Below, piece after piece: positions 10,058 to 29,049 of a DNA stretch of 64,000 nt. Origin of the DNA: an uncultured Candidatus Saccharibacteria bacterium (lineage in GTDB: Bacteria; Patescibacteriota; Saccharimonadia; UBA4664; CAZOQX01); NCBI GenBank assembly GCA_964582465.1, contig CAZOQX010000001.1, forward strand, positions 89,214-153,213, in the 5' to 3' direction. Positions within the stretch are counted from its first letter, which is position 1. Every line of letters begins with the position of its first letter. The notes below the pieces were generated by a model that ran no database searches, was not told the DNA's origin, and was given only the letters and a program-made list of their open reading frames with translations. The position numbers were made by a program, and so were the translations under genes.

Positions 10058-10258
10058 GGCTCCTTCTTTGTCAAAGGGCCCTGGCTGGCGGCCACAACTC
10101 GGCGCCCCGCTTCCAGGTTCGCGAGAGATCAGCTGGGCACTTGGCAGCTTGGCAATCTCCGCTCCAATGAGAACATCGCCATCGGTTCCCTGATGGACTT
10201 ACAGTCTCACCAAGATTATACCTTAATAACTGATTAGCTAGCCGCTATAATGGCATAA

Positions 10259-11836: not shown

Positions 11837-11903
11837 CTGATCACGCTTGTGTTTTAGCGGGTGAGTGGTATGCTAAAAACTAGCATTAAAGTGGAGTAGA
11901 GTT

Positions 11904-12080: not shown

Positions 12081-12968
12081 ATGAGCAAGGGCGTTGCCAG
12101 TCCGTTTTACACCCATGTTCAAGAATTTCGGCGCAGGCTATTCTGGACAGCTTTAGTTTTTCTGGGAGGCGCTGGAGCTGGCTATTTCTTTCGTTTACCA
12201 CTGACTAAGGTACTAAACCAGCCGATTGCTCAGCCACTTTTTTATACTTCTCCGAGCGGCGGGTTTGATTTCTACGTGAAGATTAGTTTGGCGGTTGGGT
12301 TGATGGCTGCAATCCCGGCAATTCTGTATCATCTTGTCCGTTTTATCGACCCGGCTTTTGAACGGAAAATCCATGGCCGACATCTAAGCTTGCTTGTCTT
12401 GCTCTCGTTTACGTTGATGCTAGCCGGCATGGCGTTCGCTTGGTTTGTGGTGTTACCAATGAGTTTGCACTTCTTTTCGAGCTATAACAGCCACTTTTTA
12501 AATCCACTCATCTCGGGTACGGAGTACCTCGCCTTTATTATCAACATGTTGGTAACATTTGCTCTCATTTTCCAGCTGCCCCTGCTGCTGCTGTCCGTCA
12601 ATTGGATTACCCCGATCAAGCCGCGCAAATTATTGAAGTTCCAACGCTACGTGATCGTGGGCAGCCTAATTATTGCCGTCATTTTGCCCTTTACCTACGA
12701 CCCAATTACCCAATTTGTGATTGCGCTGCCGATCATCGGTCTCTATGAATTCTCGGTGCTATTGATTTGGATGGTCAACCGCAGGCCGAAGTATAACTTT
12801 GACGCCTTCCCGAATTATCTACCACAGGACAATCTTAAGCTGGCTGGCCCAGAGCCGGCTACGGTGTTCGTCGATTTGCCTACGCTTGCCCCACCTGCGA
12901 AGATATCCCACCCTGTGCCCTCAAGGGTGCTTGACCTCAGGTCACCACAGCGTAATTACGCCGCTTAA
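12081..12968 (+). CDS. tatC: Twin-arginine translocase subunit TatC
   Basis: 295 aa, 6 TM helices. Conserved N-terminal region HVQEFRRRLFW. Confidence 0.9.
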   Translation: MSKGVASPFYTHVQEFRRRLFWTALVFLGGAGAGYFFRLPLTKVLNQPIAQPLFYTSPSGGFDFYVKISLAVGLMAAIPAILYHLVRFIDPAFERKIHGRHLSLLVLLSFTLMLAGMAFAWFVVLPMSLHFFSSYNSHFLNPLISGTEYLAFIINMLVTFALIFQLPLLLLSVNWITPIKPRKLLKFQRYVIVGSLIIAVILPFTYDPITQFVIALPIIGLYEFSVLLIWMVNRRPKYNFDAFPNYLPQDNLKLAGPEPATVFVDLPTLAPPAKISHPVPSRVLDLRSPQRNYAA

Positions 12969-12973: not shown

Positions 12974-15208
12974 TTAGCTAGCTCCCGTTCTAGCTGAGGC
13001 AACCGTGCGAGTGGCAGATAGCGATCGGGTAGTAGCGCTAGTGTGAGTCGTGGCTGAGGGACGCTTGGTAGTAAAGTCAAAGCCAGTGTTACCAGAAACA
13101 TTGGTACCATGGTAGGCCAAGACGGGTGTACGGGTACCGGTAACCGTGATGTCTTGGATGGAGTTATAACTCGATACCCAGGTGCCCGAGGAGCCGAGAG
13201 CGATGGTGGCAGCAGTACCACCAACATTAGATTTGATAGTCAAAACCTTAGTTGAGATCCCAACCGAAGTGAAAGACGTCTGAATGGTCTGAGTAACGTT
13301 CGGACTTAAGTTAATAGTTTTGGCACTTCCCCCGATAAGGAGGCGGTTATAGGTATTCGCTCCCGTGACTGTCAGGGTAGCCGTAGAGTTGGAATCATAT
13401 GTCACTGTACCAAAAGTGGTTCCGTTCGGCGCAAAAGTCATAGTTGCTACAGCTGATCCTGGAGATATCGTAAAAGTCGCTGAGCTAGCATTCACAGTAC
13501 CGCTCGTAACATTGACGATGCTAATGGCATCACGGTTACAGTTCAAAATGATATTCGAGCTTCCCAAGTTGAACGTTCCGCCCGTACAGGTAAACTGGCA
13601 GACAGTGACGGTTTTGCTGTTAGTATCGAAGGTTCCCGCCGAGGCGGTAACGGAAGAGGACGTCGCCCCAGAGGCGGGGGCAAAAGTCAGATTGTCTTGT
13701 AGAGTATAGGTTCCGCCGCCAGATGCCACCTGCGGCCGCCAGCCTAAACCCAAACGCATGCCGTTCGTGGTTAGAGTTTGGCTGCCCCTCCCCCGAAGCA
13801 CCCAGTTGATTACTGCAGCGTCTGCAGTCATGGCTCCTAGAGTTAAGTTGCCGTAAAAGGTGGAATCAAGGTTAGGCGCAAGAGTTGGATTATTAGCAAT
13901 AGCCGAGAAATTCACATGCCGACCTTTACGGGGCATGTCACCGGTGATCGTCCTTCCAGTTGAAGTAATCGAATTGGCGGTAAAGAACACATCGTCCTGC
14001 GCCAAAGGCACCGTTGCACCTGAGGCACCGCCATCTGAAGTTGACCATGAAGTAGTGTTACTCCAGTTACCGCCGGTCGTTGCTACCCAGTAACGATTGA
14101 CGCCGTTGCCGCCATTAGATGTACCGGCGTTAACAGTGAAAGTAATATTCGAATTGCCTAAAGCATCTCCGAGCGAAGTTCCCGTCCAGGCCGCGTTACC
14201 GGGCAGACCAGCACCCGTGATGTCTTGAAAGTCGGCGTTAGTCAGCGAAATGGCCCCAGCTGTAATCGTGGTTGCGGCTCCAAGGGTGTTAGCCTGCACG
14301 AGCAGTCTATTTGTCAGCGAGTTACCAGTAGCAGTAAAGGTGTTCGTGATAGTAACGGAGGAGTGACCCCATGATATTGAGTCAGTCTTGGCGGTCGTAC
14401 CCGTACGGGTAAGGTTTGTGTACGTTGGGTTAGTCGCGTTATTGTCGCCCATGGTCACTATGCCAGAGCCAGAAAAGATCACGGTCCCGTAAGTAACTGC
14501 GGTATTGCCCCCTCGAAAGGTGACGGCTGCCCCTGAGCAAGTAATCGTTGAACTCGCAGCATTGAGCGTCATCCCGCTTGAGTTCTGAGATTGCCATGAA
14601 GTACCGGCGCCTGTGATTGTGATAGCTGAATTTGTAATGGTCAAAGTCCTTGTATTGGTGTTATTCGAGTTAAAATTGCCCAACGAAAGTGTTTGGCCAT
14701 TGGTGTCGAGCGTACCTTGGGTCAGTGTGACAGTACCCGTTGAGTTAGTATTTAATGCACTCGTCAATTGGTAGCTTCCGGTCACGCTCCCCGACCCGAA
14801 GGTAACAGTATTGGGCATGGTCTTGCCCTTAGTGTCAACCACTTGGGGGGTAGCAGCGGTTGTCCTAAGCAAGACCTGGGCCGACTTATTGACCCCCAGT
14901 GTATAGGTCATGGCGTTAGAAAACTTCAGGATTACGTTACCAGTTCCCGCCGTGGCATCACCCATGTTAAGTAGGGTGGAATCACTATGGGTCAGAACGC
15001 CCCCGTAGTCACCCGTTCCAGAGGTACAGTCCAAGGAACGGCAAGCCGAGTTAATGTCTATTGTGACGTTGCCACTGCCTGTTTCGAAAATAACGTCATC
15101 AGCAGTCGTGGGTGGGCCAGACGAATCACCCCCAGCCGACGAGACGTTAGACCATGTACTAGCGGCACTCCAATTGCCACCAGCTGCTTTAGCGTAGAGC
15201 GTAGCCAT
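12974..15208 (-). CDS. Giant paralogous Thr/Ser/Gly/Asn-rich beta-helix-like surface/adhesin-like protein (744 aa), paralog 6 of 6
   Basis: N-terminal module MATLYAKAAGGNWSAASTWS...PPTTADDVIFETGSGNVTID. Repeated GTLDTNGQTxSxG and NxxNTRTLTxxNS motifs. Conserved C-terminal tail ...PVLAYHGT...TRTGAS. Start overlaps the upstream stop (TAATG). Confidence 0.8.
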   Translation of the reverse strand: MATLYAKAAGGNWSAASTWSNVSSAGGDSSGPPTTADDVIFETGSGNVTIDINSACRSLDCTSGTGDYGGVLTHSDSTLLNMGDATAGTGNVILKFSNAMTYTLGVNKSAQVLLRTTAATPQVVDTKGKTMPNTVTFGSGSVTGSYQLTSALNTNSTGTVTLTQGTLDTNGQTLSLGNFNSNNTNTRTLTITNSAITITGAGTSWQSQNSSGMTLNAASSTITCSGAAVTFRGGNTAVTYGTVIFSGSGIVTMGDNNATNPTYTNLTRTGTTAKTDSISWGHSSVTITNTFTATGNSLTNRLLVQANTLGAATTITAGAISLTNADFQDITGAGLPGNAAWTGTSLGDALGNSNITFTVNAGTSNGGNGVNRYWVATTGGNWSNTTSWSTSDGGASGATVPLAQDDVFFTANSITSTGRTITGDMPRKGRHVNFSAIANNPTLAPNLDSTFYGNLTLGAMTADAAVINWVLRGRGSQTLTTNGMRLGLGWRPQVASGGGTYTLQDNLTFAPASGATSSSVTASAGTFDTNSKTVTVCQFTCTGGTFNLGSSNIILNCNRDAISIVNVTSGTVNASSATFTISPGSAVATMTFAPNGTTFGTVTYDSNSTATLTVTGANTYNRLLIGGSAKTINLSPNVTQTIQTSFTSVGISTKVLTIKSNVGGTAATIALGSSGTWVSSYNSIQDITVTGTRTPVLAYHGTNVSGNTGFDFTTKRPSATTHTSATTRSLSATRTVASARTGAS

Positions 15209-18200
15209 CAGCTGGCCCCCGTTCTGGTAGAGGCTAAAGTTCTGGCGTTAGCGCGTGCCCTCGTGACTCCTATCACGCTGCGGGTTACGCTGTTCGGCCG
15301 AATGGCGGAGAAATTGAAGCCCGTGTTGCCCGAAACGTTAGTGCCACGATGAGCTGCCACGGGGATATTGCCAGTCACGGTGATATCGGTTAGAACATTA
15401 TTAGTTTGTGACCAAATACCGGTAGCACCGAGCGCAAATATAACGGGCGTGCCCGGAGTAGCGGAACTGATCGTAATGGGTGAACTAGATCGCCCGATTG
15501 TAGTCATGTACCCCGTAACTGTGAAGGTTTGACCGGCTTGAACGGAAATGGTGTTCACGTCTATAACCACATTCCTAAACGTCGGCGACTGGTTGAACGT
15601 AAACGCCGGTGTTGAGCGGCCTATGATGAGGTCGATATTAGTATAAACATTATTGCCCCAAGATAATTGATGCGGTGTGACTGCCGCCTTATCCCCGACG
15701 ACAATCTGTCCCGCTGATGGGCCGATAGTTGTAGCAGTAGCACTCAGGGTGTATGGCGTACCATTAACACCAATCCCCAACCCAGTGATGATAATTTTGC
15801 CATTATTAAAGGTCAAAACTTTGGTTTGTCCATTATTACCGTTAAAAAGCGGGGTAGTAAGAGCGAACCCATTTAAATTAAGTTCTCCCGTTCCCAAACT
15901 GTTTACGCCCGTTGCACTGGTGAGGGTCATATTATCCATTAATTTATAGCTACCTATGCCGGCTTGAATTTGGCAAGGGGGAGCAATAACGCCGCCTGTG
16001 GTGAGGGTTTGGATGCCTCCGCGTCCGTTATAAATAACTACGTTGTTGTACGTCCCATTCGTTGTTCCGGTCTGGTTCCAGTTGCCCCCAACTGTCACGG
16101 CACCACCGGCGTTGAAGCTTAGTGTGGGTCTATTTTTAACGGCCGAAAAATCAATATCTTTACCGATTCTTACTTGATCCACAGTGATGGTCATACTGGT
16201 TGAGCCGACTGATGCGGCGTTAATATTTACCGCGTCGTGGATTAAGGGGATACTGGCTCCACTTGACCCTCCCGATGAAGCCGACCACGAGTTAGTACTG
16301 GCCCAAGTAATGTTTGGATTTTTGACTGTCACTGTGGCGGCGTTCGTAGAGCTTTCGGTGAACGAGGCTGTACCGGCCGACTGCGTCGTAAAGTTGGCAT
16401 CAAAGGCTGTTGTCCCGGCAATACCGTTTAAAACTACGACTCGGTAAATGTTACCCGTTGCCCAGTTGGAAGTACCGCCGCCGTTACCGATTTCCAGTAG
16501 CTGTGTGCCATCAAACAAGCCCTCAATCGTGGTCGATATGTTTGCGCCTAGCTGCGTCCAGACACTCGGAACGCTGGCGGAATCAGCGGCGGTGAAGAAC
16601 TGCACCGTGCCGGTAGTGCTGTCTCTGGTTGCCCGTACCCACATAGTTGCTCCATTAGTAATACCATTTACCACCGTTGAAGTGGCAGTGCGGAGGGTTG
16701 AACCGTTGGCGCTAGTTCTAAGATTGAAGTTACCCGCCGTATCAACGTAAAAAGCATAGGAGCAGGTTGAGGTCGAGGCGTACTTTGCTGCTAAGTACTG
16801 AACGGCCGCAGGATTGGTCCAGTTATCTAGAGCGACCCTCACCCTTATATCAATCGAGCCGGTAATGGATAGGGCAGCTGAGTCAGGGGCGGTGGCTTCA
16901 CCTGTAGTTAAGCCATTCAGTCTTAAGTATGATCCGTTAAGAGCAGCTGCCGAAACCATATACCTTGTAACTGGGGTGGTAAATTTAGTGCCGGCATTGC
17001 CGTTGCCGTCACCAGAGAGCCCCGTCACCGCCGATAGATCGAGAGGGGTTGCCGTAGTGCCCCCAACCACCCACGTTGAGGCCGAATTAGCCTTTTCAAG
17101 CATAGAACCATCGATATAAAACGTAGTTGCTAGGGTGCCATTGACCTTGACTCCTACCTGCAGGGCATTGCCGAGCGTCGGGTGGGGAGTATTGCCCATC
17201 GTTAAAGTAATTGAGTACCGATCCCACCCTCCGGTAGCAGTACCACTGGAAGTGTAGACGGCACCGTTAGCCCCAAAGTCTACTCCCGCCAAAGTGATGG
17301 GTGTGCCGGCCGGAGCCAGGATATATGTTGAATACGTGTAGGTTGTACCCGACGCGCCATCGGGCAGGCCTTGGCTTGCGCCCAACACATATTGCCAAGC
17401 GCCTTCAGTGGCTCTGGCCGTATCAGTTACAACCTGGAAAGAATAATTTCCTTCCCAAGCAAAGTTAGAGCTAAAGGCGCTACTGGCAGCAGCATTGGCA
17501 GTAGAGTTGTTAGAGTTGGCGCTCCAGCCGCCACTTGAGATTTCCACCCTAGAGCAATGGGGCCTTAAGATATTGTCGCCGGCATTAAAGTTACTCTCCT
17601 TATAAAAGAAAATGTCCTGAAAGTCGCAATTGGAGATCGACGGGGTGTTAGTGTAAATGATATATCTGGCGCTGCCGACCGTGCCGTTGACCACGCTAAT
17701 ACGGTTTGTCACGCTATTGCCCGCAAAAGTGATATTAGTACAAGTCACCGTGGTACTAAGGGCAAGACTGTCTAGTTTAGAGGCCGTGCCGGTGCGAGTG
17801 AGGGTAGATATGGTTGTGCCAGTCGCTGCCGATGTTAAAACTGCCTGCCCGGTCCCCGTGAAGTTGACTGTGCCATAGGCTTGGCCACTGCCCGAAAAAG
17901 TAGCGGCCGCCCCACTTATGGTGATGGTTGAAGAAGCCGCTGAACAAGTTAAACCGGTAATCGCTCCCATGTTAAACGAGGTACCAGTACCAGTGATGGT
18001 TACATTAGCCGTACCAAATACAATCGTTCGGTTGTTTGAGTTATTGGTATTGAATAGTCCCCAAGAAATTGTCTGATTATTTAAATCAAGGGTTCCACTG
18101 CTGAGAGTGGTGGTCGAAGTAGCGGTAGACGTCCAAGCCCGGGTTAGTTGCCACGAACCACCGCTTTGGAACTGAACGTTCCCGGTAGTCGTACCTACAC

Positions 18201-18573
18201 CAAAGTCAACCGTCTGTACCGTTGCCGATGTCGAAGAGAACCTCAAGAGAGAATTTGTGGCACTCACTGGCGTATATGTTCCCGTGAACTTCCAAGCCAC
18301 GTTGCCCGGGCCTGGCGTAGCGTCTCCAATGTCTAATATAAAGGTGGTGTTGTGTGTGAGTGTGCCGGCATAATTGCCTGTCCCAGCGGTGCAGTCTAGG
18401 CTGCGGCAAGCGCCCGAGGCGTCGATAGTTACATTCCCTGAGCCGGCTTCAAAGATAACATTGTCGGCAGACGTTGGAGGTCCGGCCGAATCACCTCCAC
18501 CAGAACCAGTCGCAGACCATGTACCGGCAGCAGACCAGTTACCACCAGCGGCTTTAGCGTAAAGCGTGGCCAT
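15208..18573 (-). CDS. Giant paralogous beta-helix-like protein (1121 aa) with CBM4/9-like and LamG-like inserts, paralog 5
   Basis: Same N- and C-terminal modules. Internal carbohydrate-binding-module-like segment (...FYIDGSMLEKA...). Concanavalin-A/LamG-like segment (YLRLNGLTTGEATAPDSAALSITGSIDIRVRVALDNWT). Confidence 0.8.
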   Translation of the reverse strand: MATLYAKAAGGNWSAAGTWSATGSGGGDSAGPPTSADNVIFEAGSGNVTIDASGACRSLDCTAGTGNYAGTLTHNTTFILDIGDATPGPGNVAWKFTGTYTPVSATNSLLRFSSTSATVQTVDFGVGTTTGNVQFQSGGSWQLTRAWTSTATSTTTLSSGTLDLNNQTISWGLFNTNNSNNRTIVFGTANVTITGTGTSFNMGAITGLTCSAASSTITISGAAATFSGSGQAYGTVNFTGTGQAVLTSAATGTTISTLTRTGTASKLDSLALSTTVTCTNITFAGNSVTNRISVVNGTVGSARYIIYTNTPSISNCDFQDIFFYKESNFNAGDNILRPHCSRVEISSGGWSANSNNSTANAAASSAFSSNFAWEGNYSFQVVTDTARATEGAWQYVLGASQGLPDGASGTTYTYSTYILAPAGTPITLAGVDFGANGAVYTSSGTATGGWDRYSITLTMGNTPHPTLGNALQVGVKVNGTLATTFYIDGSMLEKANSASTWVVGGTTATPLDLSAVTGLSGDGNGNAGTKFTTPVTRYMVSAAALNGSYLRLNGLTTGEATAPDSAALSITGSIDIRVRVALDNWTNPAAVQYLAAKYASTSTCSYAFYVDTAGNFNLRTSANGSTLRTATSTVVNGITNGATMWVRATRDSTTGTVQFFTAADSASVPSVWTQLGANISTTIEGLFDGTQLLEIGNGGGTSNWATGNIYRVVVLNGIAGTTAFDANFTTQSAGTASFTESSTNAATVTVKNPNITWASTNSWSASSGGSSGASIPLIHDAVNINAASVGSTSMTITVDQVRIGKDIDFSAVKNRPTLSFNAGGAVTVGGNWNQTGTTNGTYNNVVIYNGRGGIQTLTTGGVIAPPCQIQAGIGSYKLMDNMTLTSATGVNSLGTGELNLNGFALTTPLFNGNNGQTKVLTFNNGKIIITGLGIGVNGTPYTLSATATTIGPSAGQIVVGDKAAVTPHQLSWGNNVYTNIDLIIGRSTPAFTFNQSPTFRNVVIDVNTISVQAGQTFTVTGYMTTIGRSSSPITISSATPGTPVIFALGATGIWSQTNNVLTDITVTGNIPVAAHRGTNVSGNTGFNFSAIRPNSVTRSVIGVTRARANARTLASTRTGAS

Positions 18574-20684
18574 TAGCTGGCTCCCGTTCTAGTTGATGCG
18601 ACTGTGCGGGCGGCAGAGACTGCTCTGGTTGAGGCTGAACTGTGAGCAACGGCTGAGGGGCGCACAGTACTGGTGGTGATGCCGGTGGTGTTAGAGAGAG
18701 TGCCGTGGTAAGCCAAGACAGGCCTGCGGGTACCGGTGACAGTGATATCTGTGATGGTGTTGTAGGCGGATTGCCAAGTACCTGAACCGAGAGCAATGGT
18801 GGCGTTTGAACCTGGCGTCGATGAGTTAATAGTGATCACCTTGGTGGGGTCGGCGACGGCGGTCAAGGCTCCAGTGATGGTTTGGGTAATGGCACTAGTC
18901 AGGGTAACAGTTTTGGGCGACTGGATAGTCACGTTAGCAAATGTGTTGGCACCGGTGAAAGTAACGGCTCCGATGCCGCCGCCAGCAATCACGAGGTTGT
19001 TGTAGGTTTTGCCGGCACCAGAGAACTGCTTTGACGAAGCCGTGGTGTTGGTGGAGTTGATAGTCGATGTCTGAGCGTTGACTGTGATGTTCGTGCCAAC
19101 AACCCAAAACTGACTAGTGCCAGTCAAGTTCCAAGTCCCCGAGCCCATGTTGATCGTAGTCCCGTTTATGGCTCCGGACGTGGTTTCGCCCACAGCCGTC
19201 ACGTTATGGCCGTTAGCGTCAAACGTACCTGAAGTGATACTTATAGTATTGCCAGGAATGACAAGATCGTCTTGTAGCGCATAAGTACCACCCGGTGCGG
19301 CGACTATGAACGCTCTTGGCATGGTCTTTCCGGCGCTTGTCATGGTGTAGTTCGAGCGGCCGCTAAGTTGGACTGAAATGTTCCCGCCGAAGGTCATTGC
19401 CGATGATAGGGTCAAAGAGCCAAAGAAGAAGTTCGTAATGCCGCCGCCACCGGACATAGTGAAGGTTCTGGTAAAGTCGGTGAAGTTGACGTTCTTTCCA
19501 AGCCTCGGCATATCTCCCGTCAGGGTCCCAGCCGTGGTTGTGTTGATGATGACGTCATCCTGGGGCAGCGGCACGCGTGAAGTCCAGGCAGCGGCACTCG
19601 ACCAGTTATTGGTTCCGCCAACGTAGGTCTGCGTAACTGGGGCATCAAACGTGATGTTCGAATTTCCTTGAGCATCCCCTAGCGACGTACCCGTCCAAGC
19701 AGCATTGGCTGGCAGGCCAGCTCCGGTGATGTCCTGAAAGTCCACGTTTGTCAGCGAAATGGCAGCCGCGTTGAGGGTACGTGACGTACCGACAGTGTCG
19801 CTCTGGACAAGCAACCTGTTGGTGGTCGAGTTGCCAGTAATTGTCAGCGTACCTGTAACAGTCAGGGTGTTGATCCCGAGAATTAGACTGTCTGTCTTGA
19901 CGTTGGTACCCGTTCTCGTAAAGTTTGCGACTGTCAGGTTGTTATTCAAGAGCTTGGGCGTACCGGCCCCAGAGAACACGACTGATGCGCCATTCAAGTT
20001 TAGCGCACTGGTCACTGGCTGTATTGTATTGTTCCCCGAGTAGGTCCCCGTGAATGTGAGGATAGCCGTGTTGGCTGTGACCGTGAGATTATCGGATCGG
20101 ATTTGGTTGGAACCTGTGCCGTTAAGTGTGATCAGTGAGTTGCCAAGCGTCAGCGTGCGCGTGTTGGCATTGTTGGAGGCGAACTGTCCCCAAGAGCAAG
20201 TCTGACCATTAGTATCTAGTGTACCCAGAGTTAGCACAACTGTTTGGCCACCTGAGTTGAAGGTACCAGTGAGCTGCCATGAACCGCCCGCCCCGTTAAA
20301 ATTCACCGGGCCGCTAGATGTTTGGTTGGCAAAATCGACTGCTTGGACAGTTGAGGAGGTTGATAAGAAGGAAATAGTACCACCAGCTGTATATGTCATA
20401 CCTGCCACAAATTTCAGAGCAATGTTGGAAGCACCTGGGGTGGAATCGCCAATGGCTAGGGTGATACCTCCCGAAGCCATTGCCAGAATATGTGTAAACC
20501 CAGTGCAGTTAATTGAACGACAATTGGAGGCTACGTCGATAGTGCAGTTGCCGGGTGAAGAGGCAGTGAAAAACACATCGTCAGCTGAAGTCGGGACGGA
20601 GAAACCAGAGCTACCACCATCAGAATCTGACCATGATGCGGTCGAGCTCCAGTTGGTGCCGCTGCCGACAAAATAGCGCGCCAC
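18573..20684 (-). CDS. Giant paralogous beta-helix-like protein (703 aa), paralog 4
   Basis: N-terminus MARYFVGSGTNWSSTASWSDSDGGSSGFSVPTSADDVFFT is a variant of the NW-S module. Conserved TRTGAS tail. TAATG coupling at both ends. Confidence 0.8.
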   Translation of the reverse strand: MARYFVGSGTNWSSTASWSDSDGGSSGFSVPTSADDVFFTASSPGNCTIDVASNCRSINCTGFTHILAMASGGITLAIGDSTPGASNIALKFVAGMTYTAGGTISFLSTSSTVQAVDFANQTSSGPVNFNGAGGSWQLTGTFNSGGQTVVLTLGTLDTNGQTCSWGQFASNNANTRTLTLGNSLITLNGTGSNQIRSDNLTVTANTAILTFTGTYSGNNTIQPVTSALNLNGASVVFSGAGTPKLLNNNLTVANFTRTGTNVKTDSLILGINTLTVTGTLTITGNSTTNRLLVQSDTVGTSRTLNAAAISLTNVDFQDITGAGLPANAAWTGTSLGDAQGNSNITFDAPVTQTYVGGTNNWSSAAAWTSRVPLPQDDVIINTTTAGTLTGDMPRLGKNVNFTDFTRTFTMSGGGGITNFFFGSLTLSSAMTFGGNISVQLSGRSNYTMTSAGKTMPRAFIVAAPGGTYALQDDLVIPGNTISITSGTFDANGHNVTAVGETTSGAINGTTINMGSGTWNLTGTSQFWVVGTNITVNAQTSTINSTNTTASSKQFSGAGKTYNNLVIAGGGIGAVTFTGANTFANVTIQSPKTVTLTSAITQTITGALTAVADPTKVITINSSTPGSNATIALGSGTWQSAYNTITDITVTGTRRPVLAYHGTLSNTTGITTSTVRPSAVAHSSASTRAVSAARTVASTRTGAS

Positions 20685-22834
20685 TAGTTCGCCCCCGTTC
20701 TGGTTGAAGATAAGGTGCGGGTGGCAGAAGCAGATCTGGTGGTGGCGGAGGTGTGGTTAATAGCAGAAGGTCTAATCGTGCTCGATGTGATGCCCGAGGT
20801 GTTCGATAGCGTGCCGTGATAGGCCAAGACTGGTGTGCGGGTACCGGTGACGGTGATGTCAGTAATGGAATTGTAGCTAGAGCTCCAGGTGCCGGAAGTG
20901 CCAAGAGCGACGGTGGCGGCCGAGCCACCGGTGACAGCATTGACGGTAATGGGATTGGCGGGGGTGCCCAGTGTAACTATCGAGCCTGTGATCGTTTTGG
21001 TTTGACCAGACTTAAACTGCAGCGTCTTAGGACCACCCTGGATAAAGATATTGGCAATTGTTGGTGAGCTATCGAAGAATATGACCGCACCGGTACCACC
21101 GCCGGCAATATATATATTGCCATAGATTGCAGTACCCAGGCTAAGGGTTTTCGACGTGGCCGAAACATCCGACACATAAATGCTAGCTAAGGCTGCACTA
21201 ACCGTAATACCAGAAGTAGCTACATTCCAGATTGTGCCATTACCGGTAATCATCCATTTGCCCGTGCCCATATTGAGAGTGCGGGTGTCAGTGGTAGTTG
21301 AAGTGAAACTCCCGCACCTCACATTAAACCCATTAGCATCGAAGGTGCCGTTACTTAAAGTTATCCCGCCCGACGCGCCAGTATCAATCGAGTAGTTATC
21401 CTGAAGGGTATAACTGCCGCCTGGCGCCAGGAAATTCCAAGCTTCGGGGAAACGCTTACCGCCCGATGTGATAGTCTGGGCGCCGCGACCCCGAAAGTTG
21501 CTGGAAAAGTTGCCGCTAATGCTGAAATTATTGGTCGCTATCAGGTTACCGAAGATATTGGCACCAATCGTAAAGCTAATGGTGCCAGTAAAGCCCGTGA
21601 AATTGATATCCTTCCCCCAACGCGGCATGTCAGCTGTGATGGTACCGGACGCGCTACCGTTGATGATCACATTATCTTGAGGTAATGGCACGCGGCTAGT
21701 CCAGTTACCGGCTGTCGACCAGCTGCCACCGGCGCCAGAACGTGTTTGCGTAGCCGGTGTATCGAATGTGATGTTGGAATTGCCTTGACCATCTCCCAGC
21801 GAGGTTCCGGTCCAGGCGGCATTCCCGGGCAACCCCGCCCCGGTAGTATCTATAAAATCGAGGTTTGTCAGCGAAATGGCGGCGGCGGTAAGCGTACGAC
21901 TAGTCCCAACGGTGCTAGATTGAACCAATAGACGGTTGGTAGTGGAATTACCAGCCAGGGTCAGGGTATTGGTGACGGTCAGGTTGGATAGTATGTTCAA
22001 AACTTCGGTTTTGGCTGCGATTGAAGACGTAAAAGTGAAGTTAGCACAGGTGGTTGTGCCAGCATTGGTAGAACCAAGCGACATGGTTTGAACCACCGTA
22101 GGGGCATATACAATGTTATTATAAGTCGCCACACCACCGGCAAATGCACCGGTGCTGCCGGTTAAAGTGATGGTTGAGCCGCCCGCATTCAGAGTAAGAC
22201 CAGTAGTAGTGGCTGTAGTCCAGGACGTGCCTGTACCAGTAATCGTTATGTTCGAGTTGCCAAGCGTTAAACTTCTAGTGTTTGAGTTATTGGAGTTAAA
22301 TAGTCCCCACGAGCAGGTTTGCCCATTGGTATCGAGAGTACCTTGGTTGTGCGTAACTGTCCCGCCAGTGCCCATATTGAGTGCTCCCGTCAGCTGGTAA
22401 TTACCGGTTGTATTACCGGACCCAAAAGTGACAATGTTGGACATAGTTTTTCCCTTACAATCAACCGCCTGCTGAGTGGCTGAGGTTGATCTAAGTAAGA
22501 GTTGGGCTGACTTATTCGTGCCCAGTGTATACGTCATACCGGTGGAGAATTTAAATGCGACGTTTCCGGCCCCGGCTGTGCCATCTCCAACATTAAGAAG
22601 AGTTGAGTCATTATGGGTTAGGATTCCACCGTAGTCGCCTGTGCCAGCAGTGCAGTCGACCGAGCGGCAGACGGAGTTAACGTCAATCGTGACGTTCCCA
22701 CTGCCCGTTTCGAAAATGACATCATCAGCTGCCGTCGGTGGCCCAGAGGAATCGCCGCCTGCAGATGAGACATTGCTCCAAGTACCGGCTGCACTCCAGT
22801 TACCACCAACCGCTTTGGCGTAGAGAGTGGCCAT
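20684..22834 (-). CDS. Giant paralogous beta-helix-like protein (716 aa), paralog 3
   Basis: N-terminus MATLYAKAVGGNWSAAGTWS... C-terminal tail ...TRTGAN. Stop/start overlaps. Confidence 0.8.
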   Translation of the reverse strand: MATLYAKAVGGNWSAAGTWSNVSSAGGDSSGPPTAADDVIFETGSGNVTIDVNSVCRSVDCTAGTGDYGGILTHNDSTLLNVGDGTAGAGNVAFKFSTGMTYTLGTNKSAQLLLRSTSATQQAVDCKGKTMSNIVTFGSGNTTGNYQLTGALNMGTGGTVTHNQGTLDTNGQTCSWGLFNSNNSNTRSLTLGNSNITITGTGTSWTTATTTGLTLNAGGSTITLTGSTGAFAGGVATYNNIVYAPTVVQTMSLGSTNAGTTTCANFTFTSSIAAKTEVLNILSNLTVTNTLTLAGNSTTNRLLVQSSTVGTSRTLTAAAISLTNLDFIDTTGAGLPGNAAWTGTSLGDGQGNSNITFDTPATQTRSGAGGSWSTAGNWTSRVPLPQDNVIINGSASGTITADMPRWGKDINFTGFTGTISFTIGANIFGNLIATNNFSISGNFSSNFRGRGAQTITSGGKRFPEAWNFLAPGGSYTLQDNYSIDTGASGGITLSNGTFDANGFNVRCGSFTSTTTDTRTLNMGTGKWMITGNGTIWNVATSGITVSAALASIYVSDVSATSKTLSLGTAIYGNIYIAGGGTGAVIFFDSSPTIANIFIQGGPKTLQFKSGQTKTITGSIVTLGTPANPITVNAVTGGSAATVALGTSGTWSSSYNSITDITVTGTRTPVLAYHGTLSNTSGITSSTIRPSAINHTSATTRSASATRTLSSTRTGAN

Positions 22835-25800
22835 CAGCTGGCCCCCGTTCTAGTTGAGGATAAAGTGCGGGGGGCTGAAAGAGATCGGGTAGAAGCAGAA
22901 CTATGTGGAGTGGCAGAGGGTCGTTTGGTAGTAAAGTCAAAGCCGGTGTTGCCGGAAACATTAGTACCGTGATAAGCGAGGACGGGGGTACGGGTACCGG
23001 TCACAGTGATGTCTTGAATTGAGTTATATGAGGATACCCAGGTACCGGAGGTGCCGAGGGCGATGGTGGCGGGGGTACCCGAAACTGTCGAGTAAATATG
23101 GGTGCGTTGTGAATCCAGCCCCCAACGATTAGCCAGATAATATTCTATTGAACTTAAGTTTGGTATGGTTAAGGCCTGGTTGTAGATTAAAACCTCAAAA
23201 ATATCGCCTACAAAAAATTCAGAATCGTTATTTCTGGCCCCAATTCTGCCAGAGGTAAAGGTAGCGGTGTTATTGACCATTGCGACTGGGTTTGTTACTT
23301 GAGCCCCATCTTTTCTTGAGAAGCCAGAGTCTGCTGCCCAGTAAGAAGTAAAAATATGGGGGTCAGTGTCCAGAGGAGTATAGCGATCGGTACGAGTTAC
23401 TCCGTCATCCCCAGCCCGTGTTTGACCAAATTGCGTCCCATTGGTGATTGCAAACAGATATATATTTGATACACCTCCTAATCCAATAATATCTTTGTTG
23501 CTCGCTGTATTTGTTGCCCTTGCCACTACAAACACAACACAAGGAACATCATTGCCAGCCATCGCAGCCACTAAACCTGCGGGCATAACCATATCATCAT
23601 TCACCCCATCAAAGCGCATTGAGGCCATCCCATTCATAACATTAGTCGTGTAGGTTGGTCTGGCTGTGCCAGATTGGGTAACATCAAAGCCATTACCCGA
23701 TTGATCTTGCCAGGTTGATACGGGGTCACCATTTGACCCTGAGTATTGATCGGCTTTAAGCCATAGTTTGCATCCTGCAATTGAGGTTGGAACTATGATT
23801 GCAGGGTTGGTTGAGCCCGGGCCAATGGTTGTGATCGATTGATTAACCGTCGTAACCTGCGATACAGGAAAGATCAAAGTCTTTTGTCCTTGTCCACTGA
23901 CAATAATCTTATTGAACGTGTTCGCCCCGGTAAAAGACAGTGCTTGGGGAGTATCTTGGGCATATCTCAGGATATTGTAGCTCCAGCCACCGCCCGCAAA
24001 GGTCTTATCTACTATGCCCTGACCCGTCAGGCTGATGGTAGAGGTTCCCGAATTAAGTGAAACCATTGTTGTCGCAGCAGTCCAGACCGTACCTGTACTG
24101 TTCACTGTCCATATACCCGCCCCCATGGTGATGGCTGTCTGTCCCTGAAAAGTAATAGTCGTCGCTTTAACGTTATGATTGTTGGCTGAGAAAGTTGTCC
24201 CGACGGCAATCACTAAATTACGGTTTATCCCCATGTCAAAATCATCTTGGAGGGTATAGTTGCCGCCTGGAGCTGCAATTGTGGTAGTGGCTGTCCCTGC
24301 CATCGCGTGACCCGCCATCGTTATGGTATAAGTTCCTCTGCCTTGGAGTTGAAGATTTATTCCCGTCCCAAAGGCGGTTCCAACACCAGCCCCCAAGGTA
24401 AGACTTCCATATAAGATAGGGGCACCAGTCAGGCTTAGGGTTGGAGAGCCCGTTGCCCCGCTAAAATCAAGACTCTTGCCCAATCGAGGCATATCCATGG
24501 TCACGCTTCGCCCCGCCACAAAAGCATTATTTACAACTACGTTATCTTGAGGGAGCGGGACTCTAGTTGTCCAGCCATGAGTGCTCCAGGTGAAAGAGGC
24601 CGTCCCGGTGGCAGTTTGCGTAGCGGCAGGAGTAAAGGTCATCCCCCCATTGCCGCCAGCATCTCCCGACTTGCCTGTTATGGCCGAGAGATCAACTGGG
24701 GTGGTGGCCGTTCCTCCAACTACCCAAGTGGAGGCCGAGGAGTTTTGTTCAAACATCATCCCATCCACATAGAAGGTGGCGGCAACAGCGGCGTTGGTTG
24801 ATACGCCAAGCATTATGGCATTGCCTAGTGTTGGCGAAGGATTATGGCCTGACGTGAAGGAGACGGATAATCTATCCCATGTTCCTAAACCAGTTGCCGT
24901 ACCAGTTCCGGTGTAAACCGTTCCGTTATTACAGAAGTCACAAACAGCCACTCTGAGTGGGGTTCCGGCTGCTGCCTGAACGTAGGCTGAGAAGGTATAG
25001 GCGGTGTCAGACTGAGCATCGACTAGACCTTGGGCTTTGCCCATCACGTATTCCCACATCCCCTGCAAGCTCACACTTCCTGAAGTTGTCAGCTTCATAC
25101 AGTAAGTCCCTTGCCAAGGAGTAACTTCGGTACTTACCGCCCCGGTTAAGGCGATGTTAGAGGTTGAGTTATTAGAATTGAAGCTCCAGCTGCCGATAGA
25201 AAGAGTCTCAAAAGAGGAGTCGGCTACTCTCATGATGTTGCCTCCTGCCGTATAAGCCGAGTTTTTAAACATTAGAATGTCGGCAAAATCGACGTTGGAA
25301 GTAGTCAAGGTAGTACCGTAAGCAAGATATCGCATTGTCCCCACAGTGTTGCTTTGCACAATCAGGCGATTAGTAACGGAGTTGCCAGCCAGCGTCAGCG
25401 TACCGCTCACGTATATACCAGAGCCACCCAGCGCGACTGACCCCGTTAGAGTCGCTGGCCCATTGACGGTTAGATTCGCCAAGATAAACGATGCGGTACC
25501 CGCCAACGTTATAGCCGAGCCATTGAGCGTAAATGATGCGCCGTTCATATTGAGGGCATTGGAAACATTAAAACCACCAGCGGAAAGTGTCCACGTTGAT
25601 GTGTTTGCCGAGACTGTCAGTAAAGTAGCATTAACCAAAAACGCGGAATTGGACGAGGAGGTGAGGGTTATGGCACTAGCTCCGAGAGTAAGTACTGCCG
25701 TAGTAGAGAGGCTATGAGCGAAAGTGTTCCACGAACAGGTTTGCCCGTTGGTATCTAAAGTTCCAGCGCTCAAAGTAAGGTTTCGACATGTCACACCGGA

Positions 25801-26238
25801 TGAGAATTGCCAACTGGCACCAGCGCCATTAAATGTAACATCAGTTGATGCCCCTAAATTTTTAGCCACGAAATCAACGATCTGTTGGGTCGTAGAGGTA
25901 GATATAAAACTGATAGTAAGAGCCCCCACTGCCGTATAGGTCATACCTGCCGAGAACTTTAGGGCTACGTTCCCTGCGCCAGCCGTTGCATCCCCAATGC
26001 TCAAGACAAAGGCGTTATGGGTCAACGTTCCACCGTAGTTACCAGTTCCCGAAGTACAATCTAAAGAACGGCAGGCGGAAGTAGCATCGATCGTGACGTT
26101 GCCGCTTCCCAATTCAAAGATCACATTATCTGAGGCGGTTGGCGGCCCCGCACTGTCTGCCCCCCCAGATCCTGTTGCGGACCACGTACCCGCCGCAGAC
26201 CAGTTACCACCCGCGGCTTTGGCATAAAGTGTAGCCAT
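22834..26238 (-). CDS. Giant paralogous beta-helix-like protein (1134 aa) with CBM4/9-like and LamG-like lectin inserts, paralog 2
   Basis: CBM-like segment (...ATFYVDGMMFEQNSSASTWVVGG). LamG-like jelly-roll segment (LWLKADQYSGSNGDPVSTWQDQSGNGFDVTQ...RFDGVNDDM...). Conserved N- and C-terminal modules. Confidence 0.8.
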   Translation of the reverse strand: MATLYAKAAGGNWSAAGTWSATGSGGADSAGPPTASDNVIFELGSGNVTIDATSACRSLDCTSGTGNYGGTLTHNAFVLSIGDATAGAGNVALKFSAGMTYTAVGALTISFISTSTTQQIVDFVAKNLGASTDVTFNGAGASWQFSSGVTCRNLTLSAGTLDTNGQTCSWNTFAHSLSTTAVLTLGASAITLTSSSNSAFLVNATLLTVSANTSTWTLSAGGFNVSNALNMNGASFTLNGSAITLAGTASFILANLTVNGPATLTGSVALGGSGIYVSGTLTLAGNSVTNRLIVQSNTVGTMRYLAYGTTLTTSNVDFADILMFKNSAYTAGGNIMRVADSSFETLSIGSWSFNSNNSTSNIALTGAVSTEVTPWQGTYCMKLTTSGSVSLQGMWEYVMGKAQGLVDAQSDTAYTFSAYVQAAAGTPLRVAVCDFCNNGTVYTGTGTATGLGTWDRLSVSFTSGHNPSPTLGNAIMLGVSTNAAVAATFYVDGMMFEQNSSASTWVVGGTATTPVDLSAITGKSGDAGGNGGMTFTPAATQTATGTASFTWSTHGWTTRVPLPQDNVVVNNAFVAGRSVTMDMPRLGKSLDFSGATGSPTLSLTGAPILYGSLTLGAGVGTAFGTGINLQLQGRGTYTITMAGHAMAGTATTTIAAPGGNYTLQDDFDMGINRNLVIAVGTTFSANNHNVKATTITFQGQTAITMGAGIWTVNSTGTVWTAATTMVSLNSGTSTISLTGQGIVDKTFAGGGWSYNILRYAQDTPQALSFTGANTFNKIIVSGQGQKTLIFPVSQVTTVNQSITTIGPGSTNPAIIVPTSIAGCKLWLKADQYSGSNGDPVSTWQDQSGNGFDVTQSGTARPTYTTNVMNGMASMRFDGVNDDMVMPAGLVAAMAGNDVPCVVFVVARATNTASNKDIIGLGGVSNIYLFAITNGTQFGQTRAGDDGVTRTDRYTPLDTDPHIFTSYWAADSGFSRKDGAQVTNPVAMVNNTATFTSGRIGARNNDSEFFVGDIFEVLIYNQALTIPNLSSIEYYLANRWGLDSQRTHIYSTVSGTPATIALGTSGTWVSSYNSIQDITVTGTRTPVLAYHGTNVSGNTGFDFTTKRPSATPHSSASTRSLSAPRTLSSTRTGAS

Positions 26239-29000
26239 TAGCTAGCTCCTGTTCTAGTTGAGGCTACCGTGCGGGTAACGGCCGTAGACCTTGTTGTGGC
26301 TGGGGTGTGTGGTATAGCGGATGGCCGGACGGTACTTGATGTAATACCAGTGGCGTTAGAAAGAGTGCCGTGGTAGGCCAACACGGGGATGCGAGTACCG
26401 GTGACAGTACAATCGGTAATGGAGTTGAAAGCCGAGGACCAAGTGCCAGAAGTGCCGAGACCGACAGTGTATCCCTGTCCGGGAGTGCTCGAATTGAAGG
26501 TAATAGCCTTTGTTGAAGTCCCTAAACTTATGATGTTTGATACGTTAGTAGTGCTTCCTGCGAATGTAGTAACAGTTGTTCCTGCTGGGATATAGATATT
26601 GTGAAAATTTCTACCGGGTGCACCCGTAGAAGTTCCAAAATTGATAACACCAGTTCCTCCAGCAAATCTCAAGTCGTATAAGGTAAATGCTCCCAAGACA
26701 AGAGTCTTCTGAGTAGAGGTCGTGTTGGCAATGATGATTTCTGACGTTGATGGGTTAACCGTAAGATTAGTAACCCCAGAAACGGTAAAAACAGTTCCCG
26801 TTGCCGTTAGTATCAGCTTACCCGATCCCATATTAAAGACTGTTCCTGCTACTGTAGGGGATGAGGAGAAGCCACCACAAGTAAAGTTATGGTTGTTCAT
26901 ACTAAAAGTTCCTGAGTTAAATCCAGAAGCAGAGGCAGAGTTTGAGACAAAGTCATCCTGAAGGGTATACGAACCTGCTAGGGCGTTTATTGACAGTACA
27001 CCCGTCCAAGTTACCCCACTTGAAGTGATTGTGTGCGCACCACGGCCTCTTAATATCTGGCTTTGGCCACCCGAAAAAGTCATGCCCGATCTTAAGGTGA
27101 TACTCCCATAATAAGAGGGGCCGCCCGATACAACAGCGGCGCTTGACAAGGTAAACGCCACAGTTGACCCCGAGCAATCAACATTGGCGCCAATATGGTT
27201 CATTTCGATTGTGACAGTTTTACTGGCCGTTCCCATATTGATAAAGACGTTATCTTGAGGCAGCGGAATACGAGAAGTCCACGAAGTTACAGCTGACCAG
27301 TTGGCGCTGGTTTTATTTATAGATACGGTAGCGGCATTGGCTGAGGATTCAGTAAACGAGAGGGCGTCTACAGATTGAGCCGTAAAGTCAGCATTAAAAA
27401 CGGGTGTCCCCGCCCCTGATCCTAAGGCTGAGCCATAGATTTTAGCATTGTAAACATTCCCTTTCAAAAGAGCATTCGTGCCGGCTGTATTAGAGCCAAC
27501 CTCCAAAATGCTAGTAGTATCTGCGATAGTAGCTACCCCCACCGTTGTAATTGTCGTCCCAAGCTGAGTCCATGTAGAGCCGTCATCTGACATATAAAAA
27601 TTACAGACTCTGTGTCCAGCACCGTCGTTTAACGTTAGCGAGCCTCGTAACCATTTAGTGGAGCCATCTGCCAGGCCAGTCGCGACACTTGATATATTAT
27701 TTAGAAAGTTAGTCCCATCGGCTGATGTTCTCATTTGGAGTGTCCCCGCAACCAGAACTTCCAAGCCATAAGCGAACTGACCAGAAACTGCTACCTTAGC
27801 AACGGTCTCGTTATTTGCTGCCGGTGTCCAGTCGTCCAGTGATACTTTGACGTCTATTGTAATATCAGTTGTTATCGATAGAGCTGCTGAGTCGGGAGCC
27901 GAAACATAACCACCCGACACACCATTTAACCTCAAGCTTGTACCCGTTAGTTGGGCTTGCCCATAGTATTGGGTAACTGGCGAAGGGAAAGTGATGCCGG
28001 AATTTCCTAGGCAATCTCCGAGCAAAGTTCCGGTTAAACTGCCCGCAGAACCAGTGATGATAATATCCATAAAATCAACATACTGGTGGGCACCGTGTGA
28101 GCCATTGACGGTAATGGTTGTAGTTTGGCCAGCAGTACCAGAAAAAACAAGAACTCGGTTTATGGCAGAGTTGCCACTTAATGTAAACGTGCCCGTGACG
28201 GTAATTGCCCCTGTAATTTGAAGACCAAACCCTTTATTGACCGGGCCAGTGTAGGTGAAATTTGTGATGGTTGGGCCAGATGAGACGGTTTGGGTGGCAT
28301 TGGCTAATCCGAAAGAGACAGTGCCATAAGTCATACCCGCCCCGCCCGAAAAGACATTGGAGCCATTTCCGTTTAAGTTAATGGTTGAAGAGGCGGCAGA
28401 CAGCGTAAGGTTTCCTACATTTGTCATCGACCAACTGCCTGAGCTGTTGTTTAGCAAAATCGTGGAAGTTCCGACAGTGATTGACCTGACGTCAGTTGTG
28501 GTTGACGTGAAGGACTTTAAGGTCATATTGAAGTTGGCGGTGTTGAAGGTTCCTTTGTTGACGTTAAAGGTCGTCGAAGAGATGAAGGCATCCTGGAGGG
28601 TAACCGTTCCGCCATTGGTTGACCCTGTAAAACCGATGGCGATAGGACAAGACCAGGTTTTTGTAGCCGTAGTTAAGGCACAGGTTCCGCCCGATGCTGC
28701 AATAGTAATAGTACCTGCATAGGTCATCGTCCCCATCGTGGAAGCCAAAGTTAAATCACCCCGTACTGTTAGATTGAAGGTCCCCGCGAATATGCCGGTA
28801 TAACCGGTGCCACCAGCAAAGGTGAGACTGGCACAGTCGGCGGCCTGGTTGACGGTTACGGTGCCGCCACCGGAAGAGCTATCAAAAGTTACAGGGTCAG
28901 TCGAAACTGGCACCGAAAAACCGCTAGAACCACCAGACGAATCCGACCAGTGAGCCGTATCGCTCCAGTTACCGGTACCGCCAACCCAAAAGCGCGCCAT
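26238..29000 (-). CDS. Giant paralogous beta-helix-like protein (920 aa) with LamG-like insert, paralog 1
   Basis: N-terminus MARFWVGGTGNWSDTAHWSDSSGGSSGFSVPVSTDPVTF. LamG-like segment LRLNGVSGGYVSAPDSAALSITTDITIDVKVSLDDWT. C-terminal TRTGAS tail. Confidence 0.8.
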   Translation of the reverse strand: MARFWVGGTGNWSDTAHWSDSSGGSSGFSVPVSTDPVTFDSSSGGGTVTVNQAADCASLTFAGGTGYTGIFAGTFNLTVRGDLTLASTMGTMTYAGTITIAASGGTCALTTATKTWSCPIAIGFTGSTNGGTVTLQDAFISSTTFNVNKGTFNTANFNMTLKSFTSTTTDVRSITVGTSTILLNNSSGSWSMTNVGNLTLSAASSTINLNGNGSNVFSGGAGMTYGTVSFGLANATQTVSSGPTITNFTYTGPVNKGFGLQITGAITVTGTFTLSGNSAINRVLVFSGTAGQTTTITVNGSHGAHQYVDFMDIIITGSAGSLTGTLLGDCLGNSGITFPSPVTQYYGQAQLTGTSLRLNGVSGGYVSAPDSAALSITTDITIDVKVSLDDWTPAANNETVAKVAVSGQFAYGLEVLVAGTLQMRTSADGTNFLNNISSVATGLADGSTKWLRGSLTLNDGAGHRVCNFYMSDDGSTWTQLGTTITTVGVATIADTTSILEVGSNTAGTNALLKGNVYNAKIYGSALGSGAGTPVFNADFTAQSVDALSFTESSANAATVSINKTSANWSAVTSWTSRIPLPQDNVFINMGTASKTVTIEMNHIGANVDCSGSTVAFTLSSAAVVSGGPSYYGSITLRSGMTFSGGQSQILRGRGAHTITSSGVTWTGVLSINALAGSYTLQDDFVSNSASASGFNSGTFSMNNHNFTCGGFSSSPTVAGTVFNMGSGKLILTATGTVFTVSGVTNLTVNPSTSEIIIANTTSTQKTLVLGAFTLYDLRFAGGTGVINFGTSTGAPGRNFHNIYIPAGTTVTTFAGSTTNVSNIISLGTSTKAITFNSSTPGQGYTVGLGTSGTWSSAFNSITDCTVTGTRIPVLAYHGTLSNATGITSSTVRPSAIPHTPATTRSTAVTRTVASTRTGAS

Positions 29001-29049
29001 TAGCTGGCTCCTGCTCTGGTGTTAGGTGACACCAAGGTAACCACGAGGC

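Follow-up and report, generated by a model that had tools for sequence, protein, structure and literature searches.

How an epibiont of the candidate phyla radiation (CPR; also called Patescibacteria) chooses its host and holds on to it is, to our knowledge, little understood beyond type IV pili and a few adhesins. The locus described here raises this question from the side of the genome. In a 64,000-nucleotide stretch of contig CAZOQX010000001.1 (the whole stretch that was analysed, hereafter the window), the minus strand from 12974 to 29000 is occupied by six abutting open reading frames (ORFs), all intact in the ORF listing, which encode paralogous proteins sharing one scaffold, three of them with additional blocks inside it. 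The question is what such an array recognizes, and whether it serves a cell or a virus. The region is considered, with slightly better than even confidence, to encode a recognition repertoire, in which six alternative proteins, comparable to adhesins or receptor-binding proteins (RBPs) and all built on the one scaffold, would each recognize a ligand. The modular family to which they belong occurs both in phages and in secreted bacterial proteins.

Results

Paralogs and Inserted Blocks

The six genes of the array are given below with their coordinates in the window.

12974..15208, minus strand: p744, 744 aa, scaffold only; last gene of the array; match to the scaffold hidden Markov model (HMM) at h1-683
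15208..18573, minus strand: p1121, 1121 aa, scaffold with inserts A and B
18573..20684, minus strand: p703, 703 aa, scaffold only, with a GTG start; copy used for the structural model
20684..22834, minus strand: p716, 716 aa, scaffold only
22834..26238, minus strand: p1134, 1134 aa, scaffold with inserts A and C
26238..29000, minus strand: p920, 920 aa, the most divergent scaffold, with insert B; first paralog of the array

The six-way alignment shows that a scaffold of ~700 aa is common to all six proteins, with 35-54% identity to p744, and that three blocks of ~200-240 aa, each confined to certain copies, enter it at three fixed junctions. The blocks, denoted inserts A, B and C, are located as follows.

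17014..17616, minus strand: insert A in p1121, aa 320-520; CBM_4_9-type jelly roll
24667..25281, minus strand: insert A in p1134, aa 320-524; assigned CBM_4_9 domain (PF02018)
16318..16950, minus strand: insert B in p1121, aa 542-752; in the inter-lobe linker; match to phrog_5313 at E = 5.5e-14
27312..27956, minus strand: insert B in p920, aa 349-563; copy used for the structural model
23116..23820, minus strand: insert C in p1134, aa 807-1041; Laminin_G_3-type concanavalin A (ConA)-like domain

An earlier note on this DNA, made from its letters, had claimed an extra CBM4/9-like segment in p1121 and p1134 and a LamG-like segment alone in p920. Both claims agree with the alignment, where the former is insert A and the latter is insert B, accompanied in p920 by neither A nor C. 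The peptides quoted there were also located, ATFYVDGMMFEQN and LWLKADQYSGSNGDP...RFDGVNDDM in p1134 and YLRLNGLTTGEATAPDSAALSIT...LDNWT in p1121. The LamG-like segments reported in the note are present, but their grouping as one kind did not hold, because B and C are different families (hhalign probability 4.5%); the comparison of the B family with the A family was also negative. The inserted blocks are real domains rather than chance sequence; each has many independent homologues elsewhere (158 for A, 73 for a query of A and B together, and 97 for C). When the full-length paralogs were compared with Pfam, nothing was returned, and matches came just from the inserts scanned alone; phmmer searches of p1134 and p1121 against the PDB gave noise only.

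The protein identity among the paralogs is 29-66% in the first of the two scaffold lobes, 23-45% in the second and 45-80% in the C-terminal cap, and the DNA identity is 60-78% even in the best-conserved stretches. A recent duplication or gene conversion was ruled out, since the direct repeats between paralogs are merely 60-78% identical. The six copies are old, and yet every one of them is intact; this persistence at 23-66% identity in the lobes indicates functional maintenance.

Scaffold Fold and Insertion Sites

The scaffold is predicted to be a two-lobed, all-beta structure of the beta-solenoid, parallel-beta-helix-like type. The AlphaFold2 model of p703, which has a predicted local distance difference test score (pLDDT) of 90.7 and a predicted template modelling score (pTM) of 0.86, is all-beta with strands of 3-5 residues at a regular spacing, and its residues 677-703 are disordered. 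A Foldseek comparison of this model with the PDB gave a best E value of 0.03 with a template modelling (TM) score of ~0.15, where the top entries were all beta-helix proteins. The comparison with BFVD gave A0A6J5T8W4, named 'Parallel beta-helix repeat', at E = 7.5e-25, a TM score of 0.70 and 26% identity, and A0A6J7X413 at E = 1e-21 and a TM score of 0.73; both are full-length matches, to proteins from uncultured Caudovirales. Pfam contains no model of the scaffold, the 76-sequence scaffold profile found no relative among PDB sequences, and our literature searches found no description of the family.

The two halves of the scaffold represent an internal duplication (for example, aa 1-322 versus 352-676 of p703), and both start with the motif G.NWS....W.....P...D.V; for the first half of p920, the better alignment is with the HMM's second half. 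Projected onto p703, insert A stands in for residues 319-335 at the end of lobe 1; the site of insert B is residue 356, within the linker that leads to lobe 2, and that of insert C is residue 611, in a loop between two strands, close to the C-terminal end of lobe 2.

Insert Domains

The two copies of insert A are 53% identical over their full length. The p1134 copy matches CBM_4_9 (PF02018), the Pfam family of the CAZy carbohydrate-binding module (CBM) group CBM4/9/16/22, at E = 3e-6 and 28.1 bits, above the gathering score of 25.9, as the CBM-like features reported in the earlier note had led one to expect. An exhaustive HMMER search of 1.84 billion representatives gave 158 relatives of insert A at E<=1e-3; E<1e-30 was reached solely by the two window proteins, and the next-best relatives stood at E = 2.9e-23. 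CBM_4_9 was matched by 22 of the 26 aligned family members, and the family profile aligned with solved CBM22 and CBM4 structures in the PDB (4xup at 1.1e-9, 1gui at 1.1e-6 and 1dyo at 3.5e-5). The wider family was needed for this step, since a profile of the two window sequences found no match in the PDB. The family-wide matches indicate that insert A belongs to CBM_4_9, a family for which we know of no universal binding motif. The relatives are mostly tandem module arrays in large proteins, with a C-like domain as well in 14 of 148; the closest ones share this layout, and among them some bear a signal peptide and others a phage-tail-like N-terminus. No homologue of insert A was found in cultured phages.

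Insert C has 97 relatives, which are mostly free-standing proteins of 230-260 aa. Laminin_G_3 (PF13385) was matched by 24 of the 45 aligned relatives at E<=0.01, with a best value of 1.4e-11, and the family profile matched in the PDB a LamG-like S-layer domain (4qvs, 1.6e-5) and an arabinanase accessory domain (5hon, 1e-3). On this profile evidence, insert C is a probable member of Laminin_G_3, a family of the ConA-like lectin/glucanase clan. Among viral proteins, it matches phrog_10356, a 'virion structural protein', at 7e-17, and virion proteins of cyanophage KBS-S-2A and of Erythrobacter phages.

Insert B is a different case. All 73 homologues found with the A+B query match B; none of 38 members matches any Pfam family at E<=0.01, and the profile gave no PDB match at E<=1. 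The AlphaFold2 model of the p920 copy (pLDDT 94.5, pTM 0.91) is all-beta, and Foldseek returned 106 PDB matches at E<=0.001 with TM scores of 0.5-0.68, including laminin LG5 (1qu0, 3.9e-6), the CBM40 of a sialidase (6er3, 7.6e-6), agrin, the neurexin LNS domain and pentraxins; the LamG, pentraxin and CBM40 matches have a Foldseek probability of 1.0 at E = 1e-7 to 1e-5. The LamG-like jelly roll that had been claimed was therefore recovered for this insert by predicted fold alone, and insert B is predicted to be a ConA-like/LamG-fold jelly roll whose family stands outside the curated libraries. Its fold class would be that of Laminin_G_3, in contrast to its sequence, which has no detectable relation to PF13385 or to insert C.

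Insert B is a recurrent partner of the scaffold. It was found in 13 of 80 phage homologues and in 10 of the 120 best database homologues, at HMM position ~360 or ~615-630. Among other members of the family, phage ones included, it recurs at the second and the third junction. Outside the scaffold it follows an Mtd_N domain or collagen repeats, is found as a tandem pair, or lies ahead of a true Laminin_G_3 domain. The PF13385 labels of some proteins that contain B were rejected as evidence for B, because they belong to a separate domain downstream of it. Insert B also occurs, at ~30-35% identity (E = 1e-8 to 1e-5), in proteins annotated as tail fibre or minor tail in Arthrobacter phage Shoya, Curtobacterium phage Teagster and Streptomyces phage phiSASD1, and the closest relative of the p1121 copy adjoins an SU10-type portal gene. 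The two window copies rank only 34th and 19th of 101 as mutual neighbours. Since they are not each other's nearest relatives, their sequences argue for separate acquisition or for exchange with a wider pool.

Scaffold Family in Phages and Cells

A word-indexed search gave 398 homologues of the scaffold. Among the best 120, 75 have lengths of 640-760 aa and consist of the scaffold only; greater lengths come from tandem fusion, internal expansion, a C-terminal extension or an insert. At least 120 IMG/VR viral contigs, many of ~40 kb, encode a relative with 29-47% identity, and in 80 phage loci the scaffold-positive ORFs occur one per locus. Phage hallmark genes were examined in two loci, L027 and L052. 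In L027 a major head protein (phrog_422, 1e-38) is encoded upstream of the scaffold homologue, and in L052 a portal (1.6e-22) and a major head protein (4e-36) occupy the same side; L027 and L052 are real phages. The head genes are not common to the loci, which indicates differing phage backgrounds. The idea of a tailspike-like function put forward in the earlier note gains weight from these full-length relatives and, in the two loci examined, from their position near head or portal genes. Among cultured phages, one has a scaffold relative, Limnohabitans phage DC31, at 32% identity.

The family also occurs in 17 cellular loci, from Saccharibacteria, Andersenbacteria, Staskawiczbacteria and metagenome-assembled genomes (MAGs) labelled Planctomycetota, Bacteroidetes, Elusimicrobiota and Gammaproteobacteria. 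At least one of them, L015, is itself phage-like. Some cellular homologues in Saccharibacteria and Staskawiczbacteria are multi-unit proteins of 1,800-4,100 aa. In eight genome loci and in the giant CPR proteins, a Sec signal peptide is cleaved directly before the conserved N-terminus; in L003, for example, the signal peptide ends in ...SSASSAQA and the mature protein begins with ATKYAIAAGGNWS. Inserts A and C were found on this scaffold, among the homologues compared, in the window only.

Several architectures of the homologues were recorded in passing. Loci L002 (4235-16585), L004, L006, L010 and L011 include giant cellular versions, of up to 4,117 aa with several scaffold units per ORF and with signal peptides, and, in a Planctomycetota MAG (L011), a tandem trio of signal-peptide-bearing homologues. 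An extra C-terminal module of ~211 aa (...TATTSGNLL[IV]AY...YYKIADGTE), absent from the window paralogs, occurs in phage contigs L024, L027, L037 and L053 and in Saccharibacteria MAG contigs L008 and L016. Other homologues end in long Ser/Thr-rich tails, none of which is found in the window; such additions widen the modularity of the family. In the complete Saccharibacteria chromosome OZ246413.1 (L007), a signal-less scaffold gene (9968-12061) is preceded by an ORF of 379 aa (8808-9947), whose N-terminus resembles virion structural proteins of Arthrobacter phages (Sonali gp26, 48% identity, E = 3e-17) and of cyanophages; this is a second phage-like gene pair within a Saccharibacteria chromosome.

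Partner Gene, Junctions and C-Terminal Tail

A further gene lies 49 nt upstream of the array.

29050..30630, minus strand: 526-aa gene; N-terminal Tat-like or transmembrane segment and a repeat-rich core
29001..29025, minus strand: conserved junction element ACCAGAGCAGGAGCCAGCTAATG, ahead of the first paralog; tail-codon and Shine-Dalgarno (SD)-like sequence as at the five junctions

Over 221 aa, the core of the 526-aa protein shares 41% identity (E = 2e-31) with the ORF that immediately precedes the scaffold gene of L027, and relatives were also found in phage contigs L019, L031, L060 and L063. Its ~160 N-terminal residues have no counterpart in the phage homologue; they include SRKDFLAKLGLGALGIIGVAGLV (30499-30570, minus strand), which is either Tat-like, with RK instead of RR, or a membrane anchor.

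At all five internal junctions of the array, the stop codon shares one base with the next start (TGATG, TAATG or TAGTG), and the six paralogs are translationally coupled. The junctions (15208, 18573, 20684, 22834 and 26238) are each preceded by the conserved ACnAGAACGGGnGCCAGC, which encodes TRTGAS and contains an SD-like GGAG or GGGGG, so that the SD-like translation-initiation region of each following gene is made up of the last six codons and the stop of the paralog before it. This element of ~21 nt is also present ahead of the first paralog, a gene with no paralog upstream of it, which suggests either a dual coding and ribosome-binding-site constraint or the trace of a lost upstream copy. 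The encoded residues close a 25-residue Arg/Ser/Thr-rich C-terminal tail shared by the six paralogs, ...RPSA..H.S..TRS.SATRT.ASTRTGAS (for example, 12974-13051, 15208-15285 and 22834-22911), which is positively charged and, in the model, disordered; none of the other homologues compared showed it. Part of its conservation follows from the last codons doubling as the initiation region of the next gene; the tail is also a possible candidate for a C-terminal signal. A promoter and terminator scan of the array gave counts no higher than those in shuffled sequence.

Chromosomal Context

The genes of the window are, in order, an ABC-2 transporter, a Wzy-like protein, FtsH, MurJ and tatA/tatC, followed by the array; beyond the array lie LepA, a DNA-alkylation repair enzyme, HrcA, DnaK, DnaJ, ComEC, a clamp-loader-like ATPase, DnaN and ParB. 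The array is thus directly flanked by tatA/tatC and by lepA-hrcA-dnaK-dnaJ, and the window is bacterial chromosome. A prophage was rejected after PHROGs and Pfam scans of 30 flanking ORFs gave no structural, integrase or lysis gene; in the 64-kb window as a whole, no capsid, portal, terminase, tail, integrase or lysis gene was found.

The tatA-like small ORF (11877-12074, plus strand, containing ...ALVIILVIVLVLFGGKKLPELARGIG...) and tatC (12081-12968, plus strand) are convergent with the array and end 6 nt from its 3' end. The HrcA-like repressor (33320-34036, plus strand) has 238 aa, with an N-terminal helix-turn-helix and a partial HrcA C-domain; HrcA is usually longer. An ORF of 356 aa (47898-48968, plus strand) is glycosyltransferase-like (phrog_3408, 2.4e-19) and is 33% identical over 363 aa to an ORF of phage contig L086, which carries a scaffold homologue. 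An Rfam scan of the window gave four tRNAs and nothing else. The window has a tRNA-Ile with the anticodon TAT (2706-2780, plus strand), which is uncommon in bacteria, and two tRNA-Met(CAT) genes (6157-6231 and 6353-6427).

Discussion

If the array is a recognition repertoire, the rigid scaffold would act as a stalk presenting the inserted modules, and the modules would confer or modify specificity of binding, with envelope polysaccharides as the most probable ligands. The families of inserts A and C and the predicted fold of insert B suggest that the inserts may bind glycans. The paralogs would be displayed at the cell surface, where the six diverged copies would provide several specificities for attaching to other cells, and the 526-aa protein, putatively membrane-anchored and probably co-transcribed with them, may be their partner or anchor. 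Judged by the taxonomy of family relatives alone, the organism is probably a Patescibacteria epibiont: the nearest cellular relatives of the family and two named database hits indicate Patescibacteria, probably Saccharibacteria. In such a host-dependent CPR cell the ligands would be polymers of the host envelope. Glycan-binding surface proteins are essential for the epibiotic growth of a Saccharibacterium (PMC10633639), and for another patescibacterium a role in host recognition has been proposed for giant proteins with ConA domains (PMC13059738); the reading of the array as a glycan-recognition repertoire fits both reports.

Several results weigh against this reading. The most serious one concerns topology. 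All six paralogs lack a signal peptide, and none can be extended in frame, since a stop codon lies 5-25 codons upstream; a hydrophobic or Tat-like N-terminus is found only in the 526-aa neighbour. This leaves the display on the cell surface unexplained, which is the main weakness. The scaffold has no significant match to any solved beta-helix in the Foldseek comparison with the PDB. Among the inserts, the p1121 copy of A has no Pfam match of its own, and the A family profile also matches 6tb9, a head-spike fibre of the Rhodobacter gene transfer agent, at 6e-4. The LamG assignment of insert C stands for its family, but the window copy itself is sub-threshold (E = 5e-4 and 20.6 bits, below 27.6 bits). 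Insert B has no sequence-profile link to any lectin family, and its top Foldseek matches are the ConA-like domains of dimethylformamidase and acylase. Finally, ConA-like and CBM-like folds occur also in non-lectin roles.

The absence of a signal peptide bears directly on whether the array belongs to the cell at all. It might be phage-owned, as the receptor-binding cassette of a degraded prophage or of an element with its other genes elsewhere, and work only in virions. The six paralogs begin with M-A-T/R straight at the conserved N-terminus, which is the phage type, signal-less where the cellular homologues have their signal peptide; the pair of the 526-aa gene and a scaffold gene is syntenic in L027; all three insert types have phage relatives; and the conserved N- and C-termini around a variable middle resemble the arrangement of multi-RBP phages of the CBA120 and phiK64-1 type. 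However, the window holds none of the phage genes sought and the flanks are housekeeping genes, the 80 phage loci have one scaffold-positive ORF each and not six, and six old copies that are all intact would be unlikely in a decaying remnant. The ~160 N-terminal residues with a membrane or Tat-like segment, which the 526-aa protein has gained, also speak against a purely viral role. Phage ownership is therefore considered unlikely. Between the two lies the proposal that a Patescibacteria epibiont has domesticated a phage receptor-binding cassette, made of the adaptor-like 526-aa protein and the beta-helix spike, as a six-copy host-recognition battery with non-Sec export. The spike would have been amplified into six diverged copies with different lectin-fold modules, insert B being of a type found in tail proteins of Actinobacteria-infecting phages; export might be by piggy-backing on the Tat-signal-like 526-aa partner via the adjacent TatAC, or by the Arg/Ser/Thr-rich tail. 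In this specific form the proposal appears rather improbable.

Two other explanations concern the function of the proteins rather than their owner. If the paralogs were polysaccharide depolymerases, that is, tailspike-like lyases or hydrolases, the active site would lie on the beta-helix and inserts A, B and C would be substrate-targeting CBMs. CBM_4_9 domains are typically appended to glycoside hydrolases, the PDB matches of the A profile are CBMs of xylanase, laminarinase and alginase, and in fold the scaffold comes closest, though not significantly, to PL6 alginate lyases and HK620-type tailspikes. Nevertheless, no paralog has a Pfam lyase, hydrolase or Beta_helix match, the scaffold profile has no sequence match in the PDB, there is no significant structural match to an enzyme, and the sole invariant acidic residue of the alignment, D376, lies within the repeated PLPQDD motif. 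No catalytic signature was found, and depolymerase activity is judged very unlikely. The inserted jelly rolls might also be something other than lectins, serving protein-protein contacts, oligomerisation, decoration or spacing. The LamG/LNS and pentraxin matches of insert B are largely binders of protein or Ca2+-dependent ligands, its two top matches are non-lectin enzyme domains, it has no sequence relation to any carbohydrate-binding family, and its near-invariant residues are mostly core-like Gly, Trp and Phe, with no conserved aromatic or acidic binding motif definable. On the other hand, the A and C families are overwhelmingly annotated as carbohydrate-binding, sialic-acid-binding CBM40 modules are among the best matches of B, and B stands in tail-fibre-type proteins beside canonical Laminin_G_3 domains. 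We assign a low probability to a non-lectin role.

It is well established that beta-helical spikes and fibres exchange their binding domains as modules, and the recognition repertoire proposed here can be placed among such systems. The paralogs resemble the tailspikes and tail-fibre RBPs of phages (P22 and HK620; CBA120 and phiK64-1) in their predicted elongated all-beta solenoid body, in their conserved termini and variable middle with beta-sandwich modules swapped in it, in occurring as several diverged copies side by side, and in having full-length scaffold homologues in phage contigs that adjoin head or portal genes in the two loci checked. They differ from them in that no solved tailspike matches them significantly in structure or sequence, that they bear no enzymatic signature, and that they reside in a bacterial chromosome without other phage genes; the six copies also set this locus apart from the scaffold phage loci with their single copy. 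Insert A follows CBM_4_9 in the score of its p1134 copy and in its profile alignment, but sits inside a predicted beta-solenoid and is not appended to a glycoside hydrolase, and insert B differs from Laminin_G_3 in sequence while often lying beside a true domain of that family. The predicted long beta-solenoid is also shared with secreted beta-helical adhesins, such as the autotransporters Hbp and Fap2 and the two-partner secretion (TPS) proteins HMW1 and EtpA, and the Sec signal peptides of the cellular homologues of 1,800-4,100 aa recall the giant surface proteins of Patescibacteria. In contrast to autotransporter and TPS adhesins, the paralogs of the window carry neither a signal peptide nor a beta-barrel or TPS domain, and the Foldseek matches to such adhesins are non-significant (E = 0.07-2, TM ~0.15).

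Conclusions

Three elements of the locus are new. They are a two-lobed scaffold family of ~700 aa, with hundreds of members in phages and bacteria and without a Pfam model or a solved relative; the ConA-like module B of ~210 aa, as predicted from its model, which is invisible to sequence profiles; and six phage-type copies with a putatively membrane-anchored, phage-syntenic partner in a probably patescibacterial chromosome. The locus is predicted to supply testable candidate specificity determinants, in which one conserved stalk with three insertion points carries three exchangeable modules, and these modules are drawn from the same pool as those of phage tail fibres. If the link from phage to cell is true, viruses and cellular parasites of bacteria would have receptor-binding hardware in common; if it is not, the analysis would still provide a clean annotation of a modular adhesin/RBP family.

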